Positions 12,001 through 18,000 of a DNA stretch of 30,706 nt are shown one piece after another. How positions within the stretch are numbered: the first letter of the stretch is position 1; each line of letters starts with the position of its first letter. Origin of the DNA: Thermoproteota archaeon. GTDB lineage: Archaea > Korarchaeota > Korarchaeia > Korarchaeales > Korarchaeaceae. Where the stretch lies: contig JAVCBY010000027.1 of assembly GCA_037917625.1 (NCBI GenBank), positions 1-30,706 of the forward strand, given 5' to 3'. The position numbers are program-made.

Positions 12001-15000
12001 CAGTAAGGAGCCTCCTTTCGGGAATGATACTTTTGAGAGGCTGAGGAGAATGAATAACGTAATCCTCACACCGCATTTGGGAGGGAGCAGCGAGGAAGCG
12101 GAGAGGAGGATAGTATCCGATGTATTGAGGATAATGAGCAAGTGGTTCGGGAGGAGATCTGAGATCAGTGAAGATATTAGGATCTTAGGATCCCTTAATT
12201 CTATCTGAGAAAGCTTCTATAAAACTCCTTATATCGAACTCAAACTTCCGTTTTTCCTCATTCCAGAGATCCACAGGCACTTGCCAACTGGATGGTCCTG
12301 TCGCTATAGCTGGTTCCATTAACTCTAGCCTCTCCCTGAAGATTATCTTAGTCGCTCTCATCAGGGGCCCTATCATCTCCCCACTGACTAGAGCCACTCC
12401 CGTCACTCCACTGAGATCTCCCTCAGTGAAGGATAGTATGACCGAGCATACCCTTGAGAAAGCGCCTTTTATCCTGAGGAAGTCCTTGAATGGCGCATTT
12501 ATCCTAAATACGATCCCTTCTCCCATTCCCAAGCCCGTAGGGAAATAGCCCTTCACTACTATCCCAGCCTTCCTGTACTTGGAGAACCTCTCAGCAGGAT
12601 TCGGCAGGCCCATGCCCCTCAGCTGATCTCTAGTTACCCTGCCTCTCTCCTCTATCTCCTTAAGCGCGAGAAGATCTCTCTTATCTAAGGATATCTGCGG
12701 CTTCCTCGGACTATCTAGTTCCTTCAGCTCCTCAGGGGTTTCCTCAGCAAAATGGTAACCATCTATCATCCTCCCTAAGACGAGCTCCGGGCTTATGAGA
12801 GGATCTTGCATCATATTGAAGCTCAAAGCTATCCTTTTACCGAATCTAATGCCGGATCCCCTCAAGTTCTCAAATACAGGCTCGATTTGATGAGGTATAA
12901 GCAAGTTGACGTAATATATGTTGCTGGAAGTTATAAAAGCTGAGTAGGTGAATGGGAACTCATCTAGAAACCTTATCTCCTCATCTCTCGGATTCCTAAG
13001 CTCCATCAAGTATGTTGATAAGCCCAGTCTAGAGAGATAGAGTACATAAGGCCCCACTATTATGCCCTTGTTTACTAAATCCCTCACAGCCCTCGATACG
13101 GTGGCTAAAGATAAGCCGCTCTTAATAGAGAGCCTCTCAATCTTCGCCTCCCCCTCATGAATTAAAACATATAATAGTGAGTTGAGGACCCTCTTCTCCT
13201 TCTTACTCATGTGGATGAATGGATACCCTCTGGCCGCCATGAAGAGCTCCAGGAATTTCCTCAGGGTGATCTCACTCCCTTCCCTCCAGAGGCTTATGAG
13301 AGATCTTGCGATACTCCTTATGACATCGAGCGCATTCTTAGGGTTTATCGAGAGGAAGTCCTCCGGGGACCTGTAGAGGGGCAGGGTCCTAAGCCTAGCT
13401 CTTGAGGGGCACTTAGACCAGAGAGCCAGGTGGCCTGAGTAGAACCACGCTAGATCATATATCTGAGGGAAGTCGACCTCGGGTAAGAAGTTGATGAAAG
13501 CCTCTCTTTTTATTACAGCATCTACCTCGTCAACCGATAAATTCTTATCGACAATAATAAGATCTCCTTCATTAATAACGCCTAGCCTAGGGCATGAGGA
13601 CCCTTCAACTCTTCCTAGAACAACTTTCTTGTTAATATTCCTGATAGGGCTTTCTCCTAATAGAAATCGAATGTTCTGAATCTCCCTAAGGAACCTCTCC
13701 GTTATATCTTCATTTTTTTCAATCTCATTTAGATGCACAACAATTCATATGTTAAAGAATATATAAATGTTTTCTTGGTGAAATGAGAGGTTACTGAACC
13801 TCCAAATGAATTTAGGGAATTCCTAGGTTATCAACAAAACAAAATAAGCTATAAGATCGAAGATCCTCATAACAACATGAGGTATCTCAAGAGAATATAT
13901 GAGGTGATTTAAATGAGTGGGCCAATAATCCCGCCCGGTCCGCCTATTGGATAAGCCAAAGTCCTCTTTTTTAATAATTACGCAAAGACAATCATTTTTG
14001 CTTGTTCCATAATTTTTTGAAAAAAATGTTGGAAGGGATAGATTGATATGCCCCCATTCCCCAGAGGCTCGTGCAGAAGCGTTTGCTCGTGATGAGATGT
14101 GAAAATGAGAGAGACCTTGTGAGACCTAAATACCTACAAATACTCAATTCCATCATTGAGAGGAGGCTAGGCGAAGAATGGGTCATCCTATATCATATAG
14201 AAGAGAGCTTCAGGGCTTATAGCTTCGGATTTTGTGTGAAGCTCATTGATGAAGCTGAAGAAAGCTTAGCTGAGGTCTCGCTTGAGGGGGATGAGCTCCA
14301 GCTCATCCTCCCCTGGGATAAGGTGAGGATGAAGAATTTGGAGGAAGCTACTATCCCAATGGATATAGCTATTATCAGCTTTTTCTCCTTCAGAAACCCA
14401 CAATTCATTCTAGAGGAGGGCCTCCTATCAAAAGTGCTTTTCTACATGAACCCGCACATATGGTCGGACCCATCCCTGACTGGGGCTAGCATATCCTCAA
14501 TTTACAGAAATATCTCAGAGAAGTTGGAGCTGAAGAGAAGATACTACTCATTTGTGAGGGCCGCCCACTTCATGAGTAGCATAGATAACGTTGAGGAATT
14601 CATGAAGGCCTTCAGAGCTCTAGCATCCATAGGGATAGCGCCTCCCATCGGGAAGATGGAGCTCTTCCACCTCCCGGATCTCTCGCCGATAGAGATGAAT
14701 GTTCTAAGAGTTCTATGCGCTAAGGAAGCTATAGATAGGATTCCCAGCCTTTTGGAGAGACATGTCTCCTCTTTACTCTCCGATCTAATCGGAATAACTT
14801 CCTCAGATCCTAGGAGGCTCAGGTTAGCTAGATCCATCTCCAACAGGAGCTCGAGAGAGGGGCTAACTTTGACTGAACTATCTCTCTCACTCGGGATAGA
14901 TAAAGCTTACTTATGGAGGTACGTGATACCGAAGATGGTGAACTTCTGCCTCATAAGGGCTGAGAGGGATCTATCGAGGGGGAGGGAGGTGAAGGTATAT

Positions 15001-18000
15001 AGGCCTAATACCTTCATGCCCCTCATAAGCGATCTAATGATGACTTACAGCATAAAGCTCTCATATCTCCTCGGGATGAGGAGTACTTAGATCTTCTCTA
15101 TGGTCATCAGAACTTCTATTTCATCGTAACTGACATCCCCATCCCCATTCAAATCCTTCCAGTGGATTAAGTAGAGCTGCTTCTCTAACTGAGTGTTCTT
15201 CATGAAAAGGGAAGCAGCTAGCGTGCCGAACCTAGTGAAACCCTCCCCTACGATGATAAATCTCCCCTCCCATTTCAACCAGTATACGACAGCATAATCT
15301 TCCTTACCGAAGCTCACTCTCAAATCATACTCCTTGGATCCGATGAAAAGTTTTGCTTCTTTATCGAGGATCATGGAAATTCCAGCTATCGAATTGAACT
15401 CAGGGACGAGGGGATTAGCTTTTGGACCTCCTAACAATACTACATTATCCTTCGGCAGACTTTTAGATCTTTTAGCATTCTGATTTATTATTTTCCCAGC
15501 TCTCTCATCATGCGTCCCGTAAATCACATCATAACTCTCTATACCCCTAGGCTTATTCGGGAGGACCGTTATCCTCACTTCCCTCGTCTCAGATAGAGAG
15601 GAAGCTCTAACTACCCATACCCCCTCTAGATCCGGTGTGAAATCCATGTAGAATTGACCGTTCCCTATCACCCTCGGCTTCACATCGATCTCCTCCCCAC
15701 CTGGCTTTATTATCGTCACGTTAACCCCCACTGTTGCTGGTTGGACCTCGCCTTGGAGGGTCACTGTATCGCCAACGAACGCTATCCTAGGGGCTGAGAA
15801 GCTGAATCGGAGCACTTTAGCTTCAGCTCCCCTCTCCTTAACCTTCATGATAGTATAGGATACCATTTCATCTATCTTAGGATGATCCTGTGGCTCTATC
15901 TTCTCAACTACGTTCCCCTGTTTATCTACTATCACTACTGATGCGGTATATTTGATGCCGAAGACATTTATGGAGTGCCAGGCCTCGGGGAGGAGGATCC
16001 ATCCTGAGGGAGGTGAGAAGGAATCGAAAGCTTTCTTATCCTCCGAGACACCCTTAGCTGAGAAAGGATGTAGTGGATCCAGCATGACGACAGCTAAAAC
16101 GTATTTCCCGCTCATTAACTCACTATCCGACTTCCAAGCCCTAGATAGGGCTGGTAGGAATTCCTTGCAGTGAGGACAGCTCGTTTGAGCTATCACTATC
16201 ACTACTACCTTCCCCTTGAAATCTGAGAGCCTGAAGGTCCCTCCTCCATAGATATCAACCTCAAAATCTACCGCTGAGAGCACTAGAGGTTGTGGTATGA
16301 TGAGTAAGGCTACCATCACTGATGTCGCTAGGATGAGAGCTGCGTACCTCGGCATCGATAACTGGACCTCATGCACTATTTATCCTTAACTGAGGCTCTA
16401 AATTTAGAGCATGCCTATTTTCCCTTAGCCATCATGAACTCCCCCACTCCGAAGAACCCCCTCCCCCAATTGTGCAGGGGGATGTTGATCCTCTTGAAAT
16501 CCCACCCCTTCTTCTCACTGAAGAACTTCTCATCAGCTTTAGCTGAGAGGACCTCCCCCAATATCAACTTCACATCACCCAGCTCCAGTTCTTTCATGAG
16601 CTTGCACTCCAGAACTCCCAGAGAATCCTTCACTATAGGAGCGTTGACTTTCTCCCCTCTCTCAGCTTTGAACACTCTCGATTTATCCTCATCCCTCCCG
16701 CTCCTGCTACCGACATAGTAAAGTTCTTCTATGAGGGATATGGGAATTATGTTGACTGTGAACTCCTCATACATCTCTATAAGCTCTAATGTGAGAGATT
16801 CCTTTCCTAAAGCTAAAATGAGGGATGGCGGCTCCTCCCCAACTGGAGATACCCAGCTAGCTGCCATGAAGTTTACTCTCTCCCCCCATCTTCCGCTACC
16901 TATGACGTAAGCGGGCCTGGGATGGAGTAGAAGGTAGAAGTCCTCCACCTCCTTCATAGGGGCCAAAATGAGGATCAATTAGATAAATTTTAGTGGTTCA
17001 TGGGAAACCCCTTTAAAGCCCCTCCCGATGGAGGAGCTAAGTGGATCTAGCGGACCTCTCAACTATCAACCTATATTCCCTCTCGACCAGGCTCTGGGAT
17101 ATATCCAAGTAGATCTCCGTAGTCCTGAGGTTGCTGTGGCCGAGTATGTGCTGGAGCACCCTCGGGCTGCCACCACTAGAGAGGAACCATACTGCGAAAG
17201 CATGCCTCACTGCATGCGGATGCGTCTTGAGGAGTTGAGAGACCCACCTCCTGACGGTCCTATCGCTCACTGGGAAGACCCTATTTCCCCTCCTCTCCAG
17301 CTCCCTGAGGAGCCTCTCCGTCCTCTCAGTGAAATATACGTACCTACTCTTATCCCCCTTTCCCCTAACTAATGCCCTCCTATTCCCGAGATCCAGATCC
17401 TCCCATCTCAAGGATACGAGTTCCCCAACTCTCATTCCCGTCTCAGCTAGCATCATTATAGCAGCCCTCACGATGGGTTTAGCTCCCCCTATCAGTCTCT
17501 CTATCTCCTTATAAGTCCTTATCAGATCCTCATCCACCCTAGGGGGAGGGGCTGGAGATCTTATCTCTTTAGCTAGAGATCTAGCCTCCTCGCTCAGATC
17601 TTCCCTTCCAGCTATCCTGAAAAGTCTGGAGAGCATATAAAGTTGTTGCTTCAATGTCTTCCTCTTCACAGAGGATTCCCTCCTCGATGCCCATATCCTG
17701 ACGTGTATGGGCTTCGCCTCAGCTAGAGGAGTCATACTGAGGAAGGATGAGAATACGGTTCTGTACTTCCTCTTGCTAGAGTTCGAGAGGCCAGCTAAAG
17801 CGGCCTCTATGATCTCCTCCATCCTCCCCCTCCCGGGGCTTATGGCTGCTCCAGCCTCTCCATGATGTAGAGCATGCTCTCAACGGAGAAATATATGCTC
17901 TCGAGTATTGACTCCTTGGATAGATGGCATTCATCGAGGTCATGCTCTATTAGGACTATATTCTCATTGAGCGAGATCTTACAGGGCACCCCTCTATCCA

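Follow-up and report, generated by a model that had tools for sequence, protein, structure and literature searches.

A zincin-like, tandem Lrp-type regulator and its companion peptide gene: a candidate peptide-controlled transcription switch in Korarchaeota and Asgard archaea

Two divergent genes occupy positions 12185..15090 of the window, by which we mean the whole 30,706-nucleotide stretch of DNA analysed here. Both open reading frames lie where the first-pass annotation had placed them, and gene A is indeed 517 aa long. Gene B, given there as 335 aa, comes to 339 aa when counted from the first GTG; the shorter figure implies a later start. A and B had been treated as a two-gene unit, but the 332-bp gap between them holds a third gene, an unannotated peptide gene of 13 codons. 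The genome of the window (G000) has one A and one B. The locus comprises the following features.

12185..13738, minus strand: gene A, 517 aa; predicted zincin-like domain and two tandem wHTH plus alpha/beta (Lrp-type) units
13205..13738, minus strand: N-terminal domain of A, residues 1-178; modelled zincin/gluzincin-like fold
12734..13222, minus strand: first wHTH plus alpha/beta unit of A, residues 173-335; HTH_24 match at 189-227 (E 9.4e-5)
12239..12706, minus strand: second wHTH plus alpha/beta unit of A, residues 345-500, from alignment to the first unit
13760..13767, no strand: putative TATA-like box, A/T-only, in conserved A/T columns
13711..13722, no strand: left copy of a 12-bp inverted pair, in the 5' end of A; invariant columns; candidate operator
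14017..14028, no strand: right copy of the pair, upstream of B; conserved columns; candidate operator
13901..13908, plus strand: 8-base Shine-Dalgarno match preceding the peptide gene
13913..13954, plus strand: peptide gene, 13 codons, unannotated; Gly/Pro-rich with 5 Pro, leaderless; proposed ligand of A
13967..13972, plus strand: T-run just 3' of the peptide stop; candidate archaeal terminator
14071..15090, plus strand: gene B, 339 aa, with a C-terminal winged helix; short form of a family of 450-570 aa

By archaeal promoter spacing, the TATA-like box, 22 bases from the start of A, would be placed to serve A through a leaderless transcript, and it possibly serves the peptide gene as well. 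Searched against Rfam, the gap gave no match that approached a gathering score.

A tandem duplication makes up the C-terminal two thirds of A, its two units aligning at an hhalign probability of 98.7. Pfam, PADLOC and NCBIfam matched only HTH stretches of A and nothing in B, the same outcome as reported earlier for both genes in Pfam and for A in PADLOC; Pfam gave no AsnC match in A and no TPR match at E<=0.01. Residues 1-178, previously described as an unknown domain in front of two Lrp-like units, were modelled as an alpha/beta domain (pLDDT 89.4) that appears zincin-like. Its best fold match was middling (Z 8.4, rmsd 4.7, 164 residues aligned), and of the 31 chains that reached a Z of at least 5, 26 were metallopeptidases. 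Foldseek gave no match to this domain at E<=0.001, and a PDB sequence search found nothing. With the HExxH register taken from the position of the helix in the model, not from a superposition, histidine is absent from both zinc positions in 70/70 relatives of A, and none has HExxH. Near-invariant residues are E79 (67/70), D95 (69/70), W107 (70/70) and Y122 (67/70). Model and alignments together show A as a predicted zincin-like domain without zinc ligands, joined to two Lrp-type DNA-binding units. With this fold but no zinc histidines, the N-terminal domain is likely to be a pseudo-peptidase.

Members of the B family combine an alpha/beta part at the N terminus with a winged helix at the C terminus. 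A long paralog was modelled at pLDDT 89.7; all of its fold matches cover the winged helix only, and a PDB sequence search with B likewise found wHTH only. A weak Mrs2 row (E 0.044) for the long paralog was set aside. Of 37 paralog loci, 28 have B alongside A and 9 lack it, as do all 12 Asgard loci; the B of L083 was recognized by profile (E 1.3e-18) with no significant pairwise match. B is thus a frequent but dispensable partner of A. Because A is accompanied by the peptide gene and often lacks B, we rejected the two-gene pair as the unit.

Relatives of A occur in 28 of the 43 genomes of the phylum, G000 counted, or 29/43 by profile, close to the 27 of the first-pass annotation; its maximum of 6 copies becomes 7 matches in G020, two of which are pieces of one broken copy. 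A single-sequence search placed B in 24/43. L067, an HTH-only match, was left out. The Asgard sample consists of 12 metagenome loci chosen by A motifs. Searching genome contigs with an Asgard relative gave a single weak, unrelated match, none of 35 viral contig candidates was confirmed, and the ESM Atlas gave no usable match for A or B.

The Shine-Dalgarno sequence of the peptide gene has the best score among the 10 open reading frames of G000 that passed the filter. Across eight orthologues the third codon position varies in 12/12 codons and the first and second in 3/12, and pairwise codon differences are 159 synonymous versus 78 non-synonymous. This substitution pattern indicates that the peptide gene of the window is conserved and under purifying selection. 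Similar mini-genes, counted by a rule that was set after peptides had been seen, adjoin 32 of the 44 copies of A with both flanks fully readable (42/73 copies, readable or not), compared with 5/100 control genes from the same loci and 20/695 genes of G000. Other inspection of the loci found a peptide gene at 7 of the 12 readable copies that the rule had missed; the five without a candidate are L043, L045, L063 and the two pieces of the broken L051. The Asgard locus L080 also yielded none. Placement varies: mini-genes are divergent from A, convergent behind it or behind B. Peptide sequence differs between paralog clades, and L047 and L050 each have two copies of A and two different peptides. 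In G024 (L031 versus L087) the peptide remains with A although B is elsewhere, as it does in Asgard loci, where B is absent. The gene that travels with A is thus a small one for a Pro-rich peptide, and it brings a ribosome-binding site and a T-run of its own.

The peptide of the window and most of those in Korarchaeota have no export signal. A signal-peptide-like leader, called by hydropathy and a small-x-Ala rule, precedes the peptide in Asgard loci of Baldrarchaeia type and in two loci from deeper Korarchaeota. Ten such precursors, 36-58 aa long, contain a hydrophobic stretch with Kyte-Doolittle values of 3.0-3.9, versus -0.5 to 0.5 in four leaderless peptides; in eight a small-x-Ala site is followed by a Pro-rich tail of 10-12 aa. 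The eight Asgard precursors come from closely related sources, which leaves about three independent lineages as the basis for the export signals. Leaderless peptides may still be exported signals, according to extracts of PMC10518010. The neighbourhoods of the peptide genes share no conserved, dedicated transporter or protease; ABC-2 exporter genes adjoin the peptide gene in L039/L044.

Core cas matches occur in 16 of the 37 paralog loci, which were not selected for cas genes, and in 11 of the 21 with at least 10 kb of DNA available. This confirms the linkage reported earlier and replaces its rate of 12/20, which came from loci partly chosen for cas. Asgard copies of A adjoin CARF-wHTH (Csa3-like), Cas6 and Cas1 genes. 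The copy in the window is not cas-linked, as had been noted: no cas family was found among the 30 window open reading frames scanned, and cas1 of G000 is on another contig. The available DNA of 13/37 loci, several of them short stretches, contains no cas or CARF gene. These counts support a family of undescribed regulators with an enrichment in cas loci; of the proposed CRISPR-associated regulator pair the enrichment holds, whereas the pairing does not, and a cas-exclusive family is rejected by the 13 loci and by the window.

We propose, at a probability of about 60%, that A, the peptide and B form a three-gene, peptide-controlled transcription switch. On the best reading it would work like RRNPP systems, with an unrelated receptor. 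A peptidase-like domain without catalytic metal ligands suits peptide binding, and the mature peptide would most simply bind A in the dead cleft lined by conserved Trp/Tyr, or alternatively in its Lrp-type effector pockets. Binding would alter how A acts at the neighbouring promoters, and B would be an optional component, either a second DNA-binding partner or a target. In the window, A would probably act on the three genes of the module itself; where a copy is cas-linked, the cas operon might be what it controls. More speculatively, the peptide might exit the cell and return, sensing density as in RRNPP and leaderless-peptide systems. A complex predicted between the regulator of L052 and residues 19-48 of the peptide precursor from that locus scored 0.02, with an uncertain partner fold and no folded controls. 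We advance only tentatively the wider idea of archaeal peptide signalling between cells, common to Korarchaeota and Asgard, with an RRNPP-independent receptor (dead metallopeptidase plus tandem Lrp units) and clade-private peptide codes, exported or leaderless, that would set CRISPR-Cas expression by population density.

Hardly anything is known of the signals and receptors through which archaeal cells communicate; extracts of a 2025 paper count three true examples, and a single gene with a demonstrated role in a pathway of this kind (PMC12240190). We found no published description of the module in the literature. For ligand, receptor and target promoters alike the module supplies candidates, each of them small. 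If the proposal is true, pseudo-peptidase plus tandem Lrp would be a new class of peptide receptor, CRISPR-Cas control would gain a new input, and the lineages nearest to eukaryote ancestry would have a signalling device.

The peptide could instead be an output: an antimicrobial, antiviral or RiPP-like effector, secreted or modified, whose gene is regulated by A and B on another ligand. Export-signal forms, loci rich in defence genes and the ABC-2 genes of L039/L044 agree with this, but no modifying enzyme family is conserved nearby, each copy of A has its own peptide even in tandem pairs, and a peptidase-like domain lacking catalytic metal ligands fits peptide binding; we regard it as unlikely. 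Unlikely too is an intracellular cofactor or anti-regulator that binds A or bridges A and B within the producing cell, in an autoregulatory loop that sends no signal to other cells. In its favour, most Korarchaeota peptides, that of the window included, are leaderless, and B accompanies A at most paralog loci; against it stand signal-peptide-like leaders in three lineages, one a deep Korarchaeota branch, and leaderless peptides can be exported signals (extracts of PMC10518010).

We doubt still more that the mini-gene is a cis-acting leader (uORF) in which ribosome pausing at Pro-Pro reports translation stress and controls the downstream gene, B in the window and cas genes elsewhere, the peptide being irrelevant. 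Bacteria have proline-sensing leaders, Pro-Pro pairs are kept, and in the window and L036-L038 the mini-gene precedes B or a same-strand operon. In L040, L042, L046, L048, L055, L056 and L060, however, the mini-gene has nothing to lead, being the final gene ahead of a convergent A; its stop is followed by T-runs, and signal-peptide-like leaders make no sense in cis; the divergent, convergent or behind-B placements thus argue against leader peptides, and we rejected this as a general explanation. Very improbable is an active non-canonical protease-regulator like IrrE/ImmA/CapP that cleaves B or the peptide: despite the zincin-like fold, IrrE/PprI among the weak Foldseek rows and a Glu at the catalytic position in 67/70, neither inferred zinc position has His in any of 70 relatives, and an active zinc protease was rejected.

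The proposed peptide-controlled switch shares parts with several known systems. Lrp/AsnC feast-famine regulators have a wHTH followed by an alpha/beta unit, as A does, and one Asgard relative is named Lrp/AsnC by its source. A is not, however, a single unit of ~150 aa without an extra sensor domain: it has two tandem units preceded by a peptidase-like domain of 178 aa (total length across the family 500-575 aa), and a cognate peptide gene in place of an amino-acid effector. Zincin-like domains in gene control also occur in the zincin regulators IrrE/PprI, ImmA and CapP, in the M. tuberculosis regulator of PDB 6CYJ and in TAF2, a dead M1 peptidase; A differs in lacking HExxH (0/70), in its fusion to tandem Lrp-type units and in the peptide gene alongside. 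RRNPPA receptors combine an HTH with TPR, whereas the A module is archaeal, has an extra wHTH partner in B and contains no all-helical TPR domain, residues 1-178 being alpha/beta and the rest two HTH plus alpha/beta units. Extracts of PMC10518010 describe RRNPPA systems (Rap-Phr, PlcR-PapR, Rgg-SHP, AimR-AimP) in Bacillota and phages, and a leaderless class, LCP-RopB. There too the gene of a cytosolic transcription regulator has a tiny, unannotated peptide gene next to it, and the peptide varies with receptor clade; propeptides with a signal sequence exist there besides leaderless forms, as may be the case in our module. RRNPPA peptides are given as 5-8 aa, whereas those of our module have 10-24 aa and are rich in Pro.

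Density control of cas expression would have a parallel in AHL quorum sensing, which controls CRISPR-Cas in Serratia and Pseudomonas according to extracts of PMC10013973, through a global small-molecule circuit in bacteria as opposed to a locus-encoded peptide cassette in archaea. The same extracts describe Csa3a/Csa3b (CasR) as CARF-wHTH regulators of archaeal cas loci. A resembles them as a DNA-binding-type regulator within cas loci but has no CARF domain: PADLOC CasR/Csa3 and TIGR01884 match its HTH stretch only, at 19.1 bits against a cut-off of 60.2. In the Asgard loci, a true Csa3-like gene adjoins the A module.

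Gene A, which encodes a putative tandem Lrp-like regulator with an N-terminal domain, and gene B, which encodes its winged-helix partner, are divergent, lie 332 bp apart and are surrounded by housekeeping genes. The first-pass annotation had described them as a two-gene regulator pair; both genes and their arrangement hold, but the unit also has a peptide gene in the gap.

12185–13738, minus strand: gene A, 517 aa
13711–13722 and 14017–14028: conserved 12-bp inverted pair, candidate control site
13760–13767: TATA-like box, candidate control site
13901–13908, plus strand: 8-base Shine–Dalgarno match ahead of the peptide gene
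13913–13954, plus strand: peptide gene, an ORF of 13 codons with five prolines in the A–B gap
13967–13972, plus strand: T-run behind the peptide gene
14071–15090, plus strand: gene B, 339 aa

The peptide gene has the top Shine–Dalgarno sequence among ten ORFs of this genome that pass a proline-rich/Shine–Dalgarno filter. Across eight equal-length orthologues, 12 of 12 codons vary at the third position and 3 of 12 at each of the first two, with 159 synonymous versus 78 non-synonymous pairwise differences, counted between kin and hence non-independent.

Relatives of A were found in 28 of 43 phylum genomes, this one counted (29 by profile), which bears out the wide spread reported earlier (27 of 43), and relatives of B in 24. 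Pfam, PADLOC and NCBIfam returned HTH matches only for A and no match for B. A profile of the N-terminal domain of A recovered 60 representatives at E ≤ 0.001 (1.84 billion searched), about 480–575 aa at full length; ten distant ones were looked up, and the three in named clusters were Asgardarchaeia or Odinarchaeota. B adjoins A at 28 of 37 paralog loci and at 16 window-type loci, and at none of 12 Asgard loci; in genome G024 the peptide gene stays with A and a short B lies on a separate contig. At paralog loci B relatives measure 450–570 aa, and the window B lacks about 150 N-terminal residues by comparison. Long B gave a good structure model, with matches confined to the winged helix (Z 8.3–8.6). 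The most distant Korarchaeota copy, from a different class-level branch (G001), retains A, a relative of B found by profile (E 1.3e-18) and a proline-rich ORF of 13 codons.

For the paralog loci we took all non-orthologous places of A relatives regardless of cas presence, leaving 37 once two fragments of orthologues and one match confined to the HTH had been excluded. Most carry a proline-rich mini-gene of 11–24 codons, about 300 bp or less from A. A single fixed rule, formulated once peptides had been seen, gave a candidate for 32 of the 44 A copies that could be read on both sides and for 42 of all 73. Among other genes at the same loci it gave 5 of 100, and among genes of the window's genome 20 of 695. 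Seven of the 12 misses do have a peptide gene that fails on T-run or proline count alone; none was found at the other five (L043, L045, L063 and two pieces of L051). Two loci (L047 and L050) contain two A genes each, with two different peptides, and on a midpoint-rooted tree of A the peptides are near-identical on close branches and different on distant ones. The peptide gene is thus conserved and tracks A. At L054 a peptide ORF with a perfect ribosome-binding site has a CTG start (plus strand, near 2130–2171), and L051 is a broken copy (7875–10794) in which A, B and the adjacent cas1 are all fragmented.

Some peptides appear to be made with a leader. A metagenome scan with motifs of the A N-terminal domain yielded the 12 Asgard loci, one protein of which is named Baldrarchaeia/Odinarchaeota by its sources. 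At 9 of 11 loci of this Baldrarchaeia-type clade, a 36–39-codon ORF (one truncated at a contig end) lies upstream of A and encodes a basic start, a hydrophobic stretch, a small-x-Ala site and a conserved Trp/Pro-rich tail of 10–12 aa; L079 is cut, and no such ORF was found at L080 or at the single more distant Asgard locus, L082. Two Korarchaeota loci that do not belong to the window's genus group, L052 and L053, have longer precursors of like build. Ten precursors reached a best 11-residue hydropathy of 3.0–3.9, compared with −0.5 to 0.5 for four leaderless peptides, which suggests signal-peptide-like leaders in those ten; since the Asgard loci are close kin, this amounts to about three independent observations. 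Three precursors looked up were absent from a 15-billion protein collection. At L071–L081 a conserved basic ORF of about 45–50 codons lies between precursor and A; it is encoded on the opposite strand, diverges from A and converges with the precursor, and is also present where the precursor is absent (L080, minus strand, from 1111). Possible helpers in export or processing, which other loci do not conserve, are ABC-2 exporter genes near a 24-aa peptide gene (L039:12194–15717, L044:5980–8629) and, close to the loci with two A genes, an Rce1-like CAAX protease (L047:13848–14531, L050:4424–5095).

The model of A residues 1–178 (pLDDT 89.4) was compared with 48,161 chains. M1 aminopeptidases ranked first (Z 8.4, rmsd 4.7, 164 aligned), followed by thermolysin (Z 7.2) and TFIID chains (Z 7.0). 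Foldseek returned nothing at E ≤ 0.001, its weak rows including M61/M1 peptidases, selecase and IrrE. With middling Z scores, the weight for a zincin-like fold comes from the uniformity of the match list, in which metallopeptidases make up 26 of 31 chains at Z ≥ 5. Helix 69–82 ends in R78-E79-x-x-I82 at the place of the zincin HExxH (register inferred), and none of 70 relatives has His at either inferred zinc position, while E79 (67), D95 (69), W107 (70) and Y122 (67) are retained. Proline is usually bound by aromatic residues. We read this domain as a probable pseudo-peptidase with a preserved cleft, joined to two HTH plus alpha/beta units (hhalign 98.7) that appear Lrp-like from the earlier fold match.

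We propose, with a probability of roughly 0.6, that the peptide is a ligand of A and alters how A acts on the neighbouring promoters. That it also moves between cells and sets cas expression is a more tentative extension. It is unlikely that the peptide is instead a secreted effector regulated by A/B, and marginally less likely that it is a purely intracellular cofactor. Less probable again is a cis leader: we rejected a leader of the downstream gene as a general explanation because orientations vary, the peptide gene diverging from A at L031–L039 and in the window clade, being convergent behind A at L040, L042 and L046, and behind B at L048, L055, L056 and L060. An active protease is very improbable, and an HExxH protease-regulator was rejected for want of the zinc-position histidines.

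The proposed module would work like RRNPPA and leaderless LCP–RopB, bacterial peptide-receptor regulators (PMC10518010), but is not a member, its putative receptor A lacking the TPR build. It is also distinct from Csa3/CasR (PMC10013973), and the consulted part of the archaeal CRISPR survey PMC3973734 lists no such family. Full-text literature search found no description of the module; subscription papers or supplements may contain cluster lists with these proteins. Archaeal quorum sensing comprises three true cases and one proven gene, by the count in PMC12240190. The module is real and combines a peptide with a regulator whose build, as a putative receptor, is new; its tie to CRISPR is partial, and the function proposed for it is directly testable.

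The paralogs had been placed inside cas loci on a partly selected sample. We scanned 282 of 296 ORFs within 6.5 kb by Pfam, leaving out 14 syntenic duplicates (L033/L034), and applied PADLOC to 46 selected neighbour proteins. Core cas matches of types I and III occurred at 16 of the 37 unselected loci (11 of 21 with at least 10 kb of sequence), and a CARF or Csx3 gene alone at five. L066 has a weak Csm4 match, and L036 and L061 have a homologue (56% and 73%) of the first gene in the L037 operon that contains cas3. The other 13 of the 37 have no cas or CARF gene in the sequence scanned; several are 2–7-kb contigs, and two have cas1 18 and 34 kb away. At seven Asgard loci the peptide has a divergent CARF-wHTH neighbour (Csa3-like; the two examined matched at E 6e-28 and 2e-26), followed by Cas6 and Cas1; as these loci were chosen by A motifs, they support the link independently, counted as one lineage. 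The association with CRISPR is real, though partial. As previously noted, the window clade has a stand-alone copy: none of 30 scanned window ORFs matches cas families, and the genome's cas1 is on a different contig.

Directly behind the peptide gene at L037:9457–16158, L038:1975–8758 and L052:10612–17402 lies an operon, possibly a divergent type I subtype, of four ORFs (655, 173, 437 and 278 aa) without Pfam or NCBIfam match, followed by a helicase resembling Cas3' (type I-D model, E 5.7e-8, below cut-off). In L037 and L038 the other side carries cas6, a BrxD/STAND-like ATPase and cas1. At L032–L035 (genus g2) the peptide is followed by a CARF5-like protein of 245–263 aa and then by Ig-domain surface proteins; core cas genes are absent within 6.5 kb.

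Elsewhere in the window, a fumarylacetoacetate-hydrolase gene (72–958) is in two overlapping frames (72–530 and 527–958). A 2-hydroxyacid dehydrogenase gene with an N-terminal extension of about 160 aa (10844–12208) shares 24 bases with the 3' end of A, and close relatives keep it at this place. At 17037–18575 a tyrosine recombinase (261 aa) is preceded by two small ORFs, of which one matches YbjN weakly.
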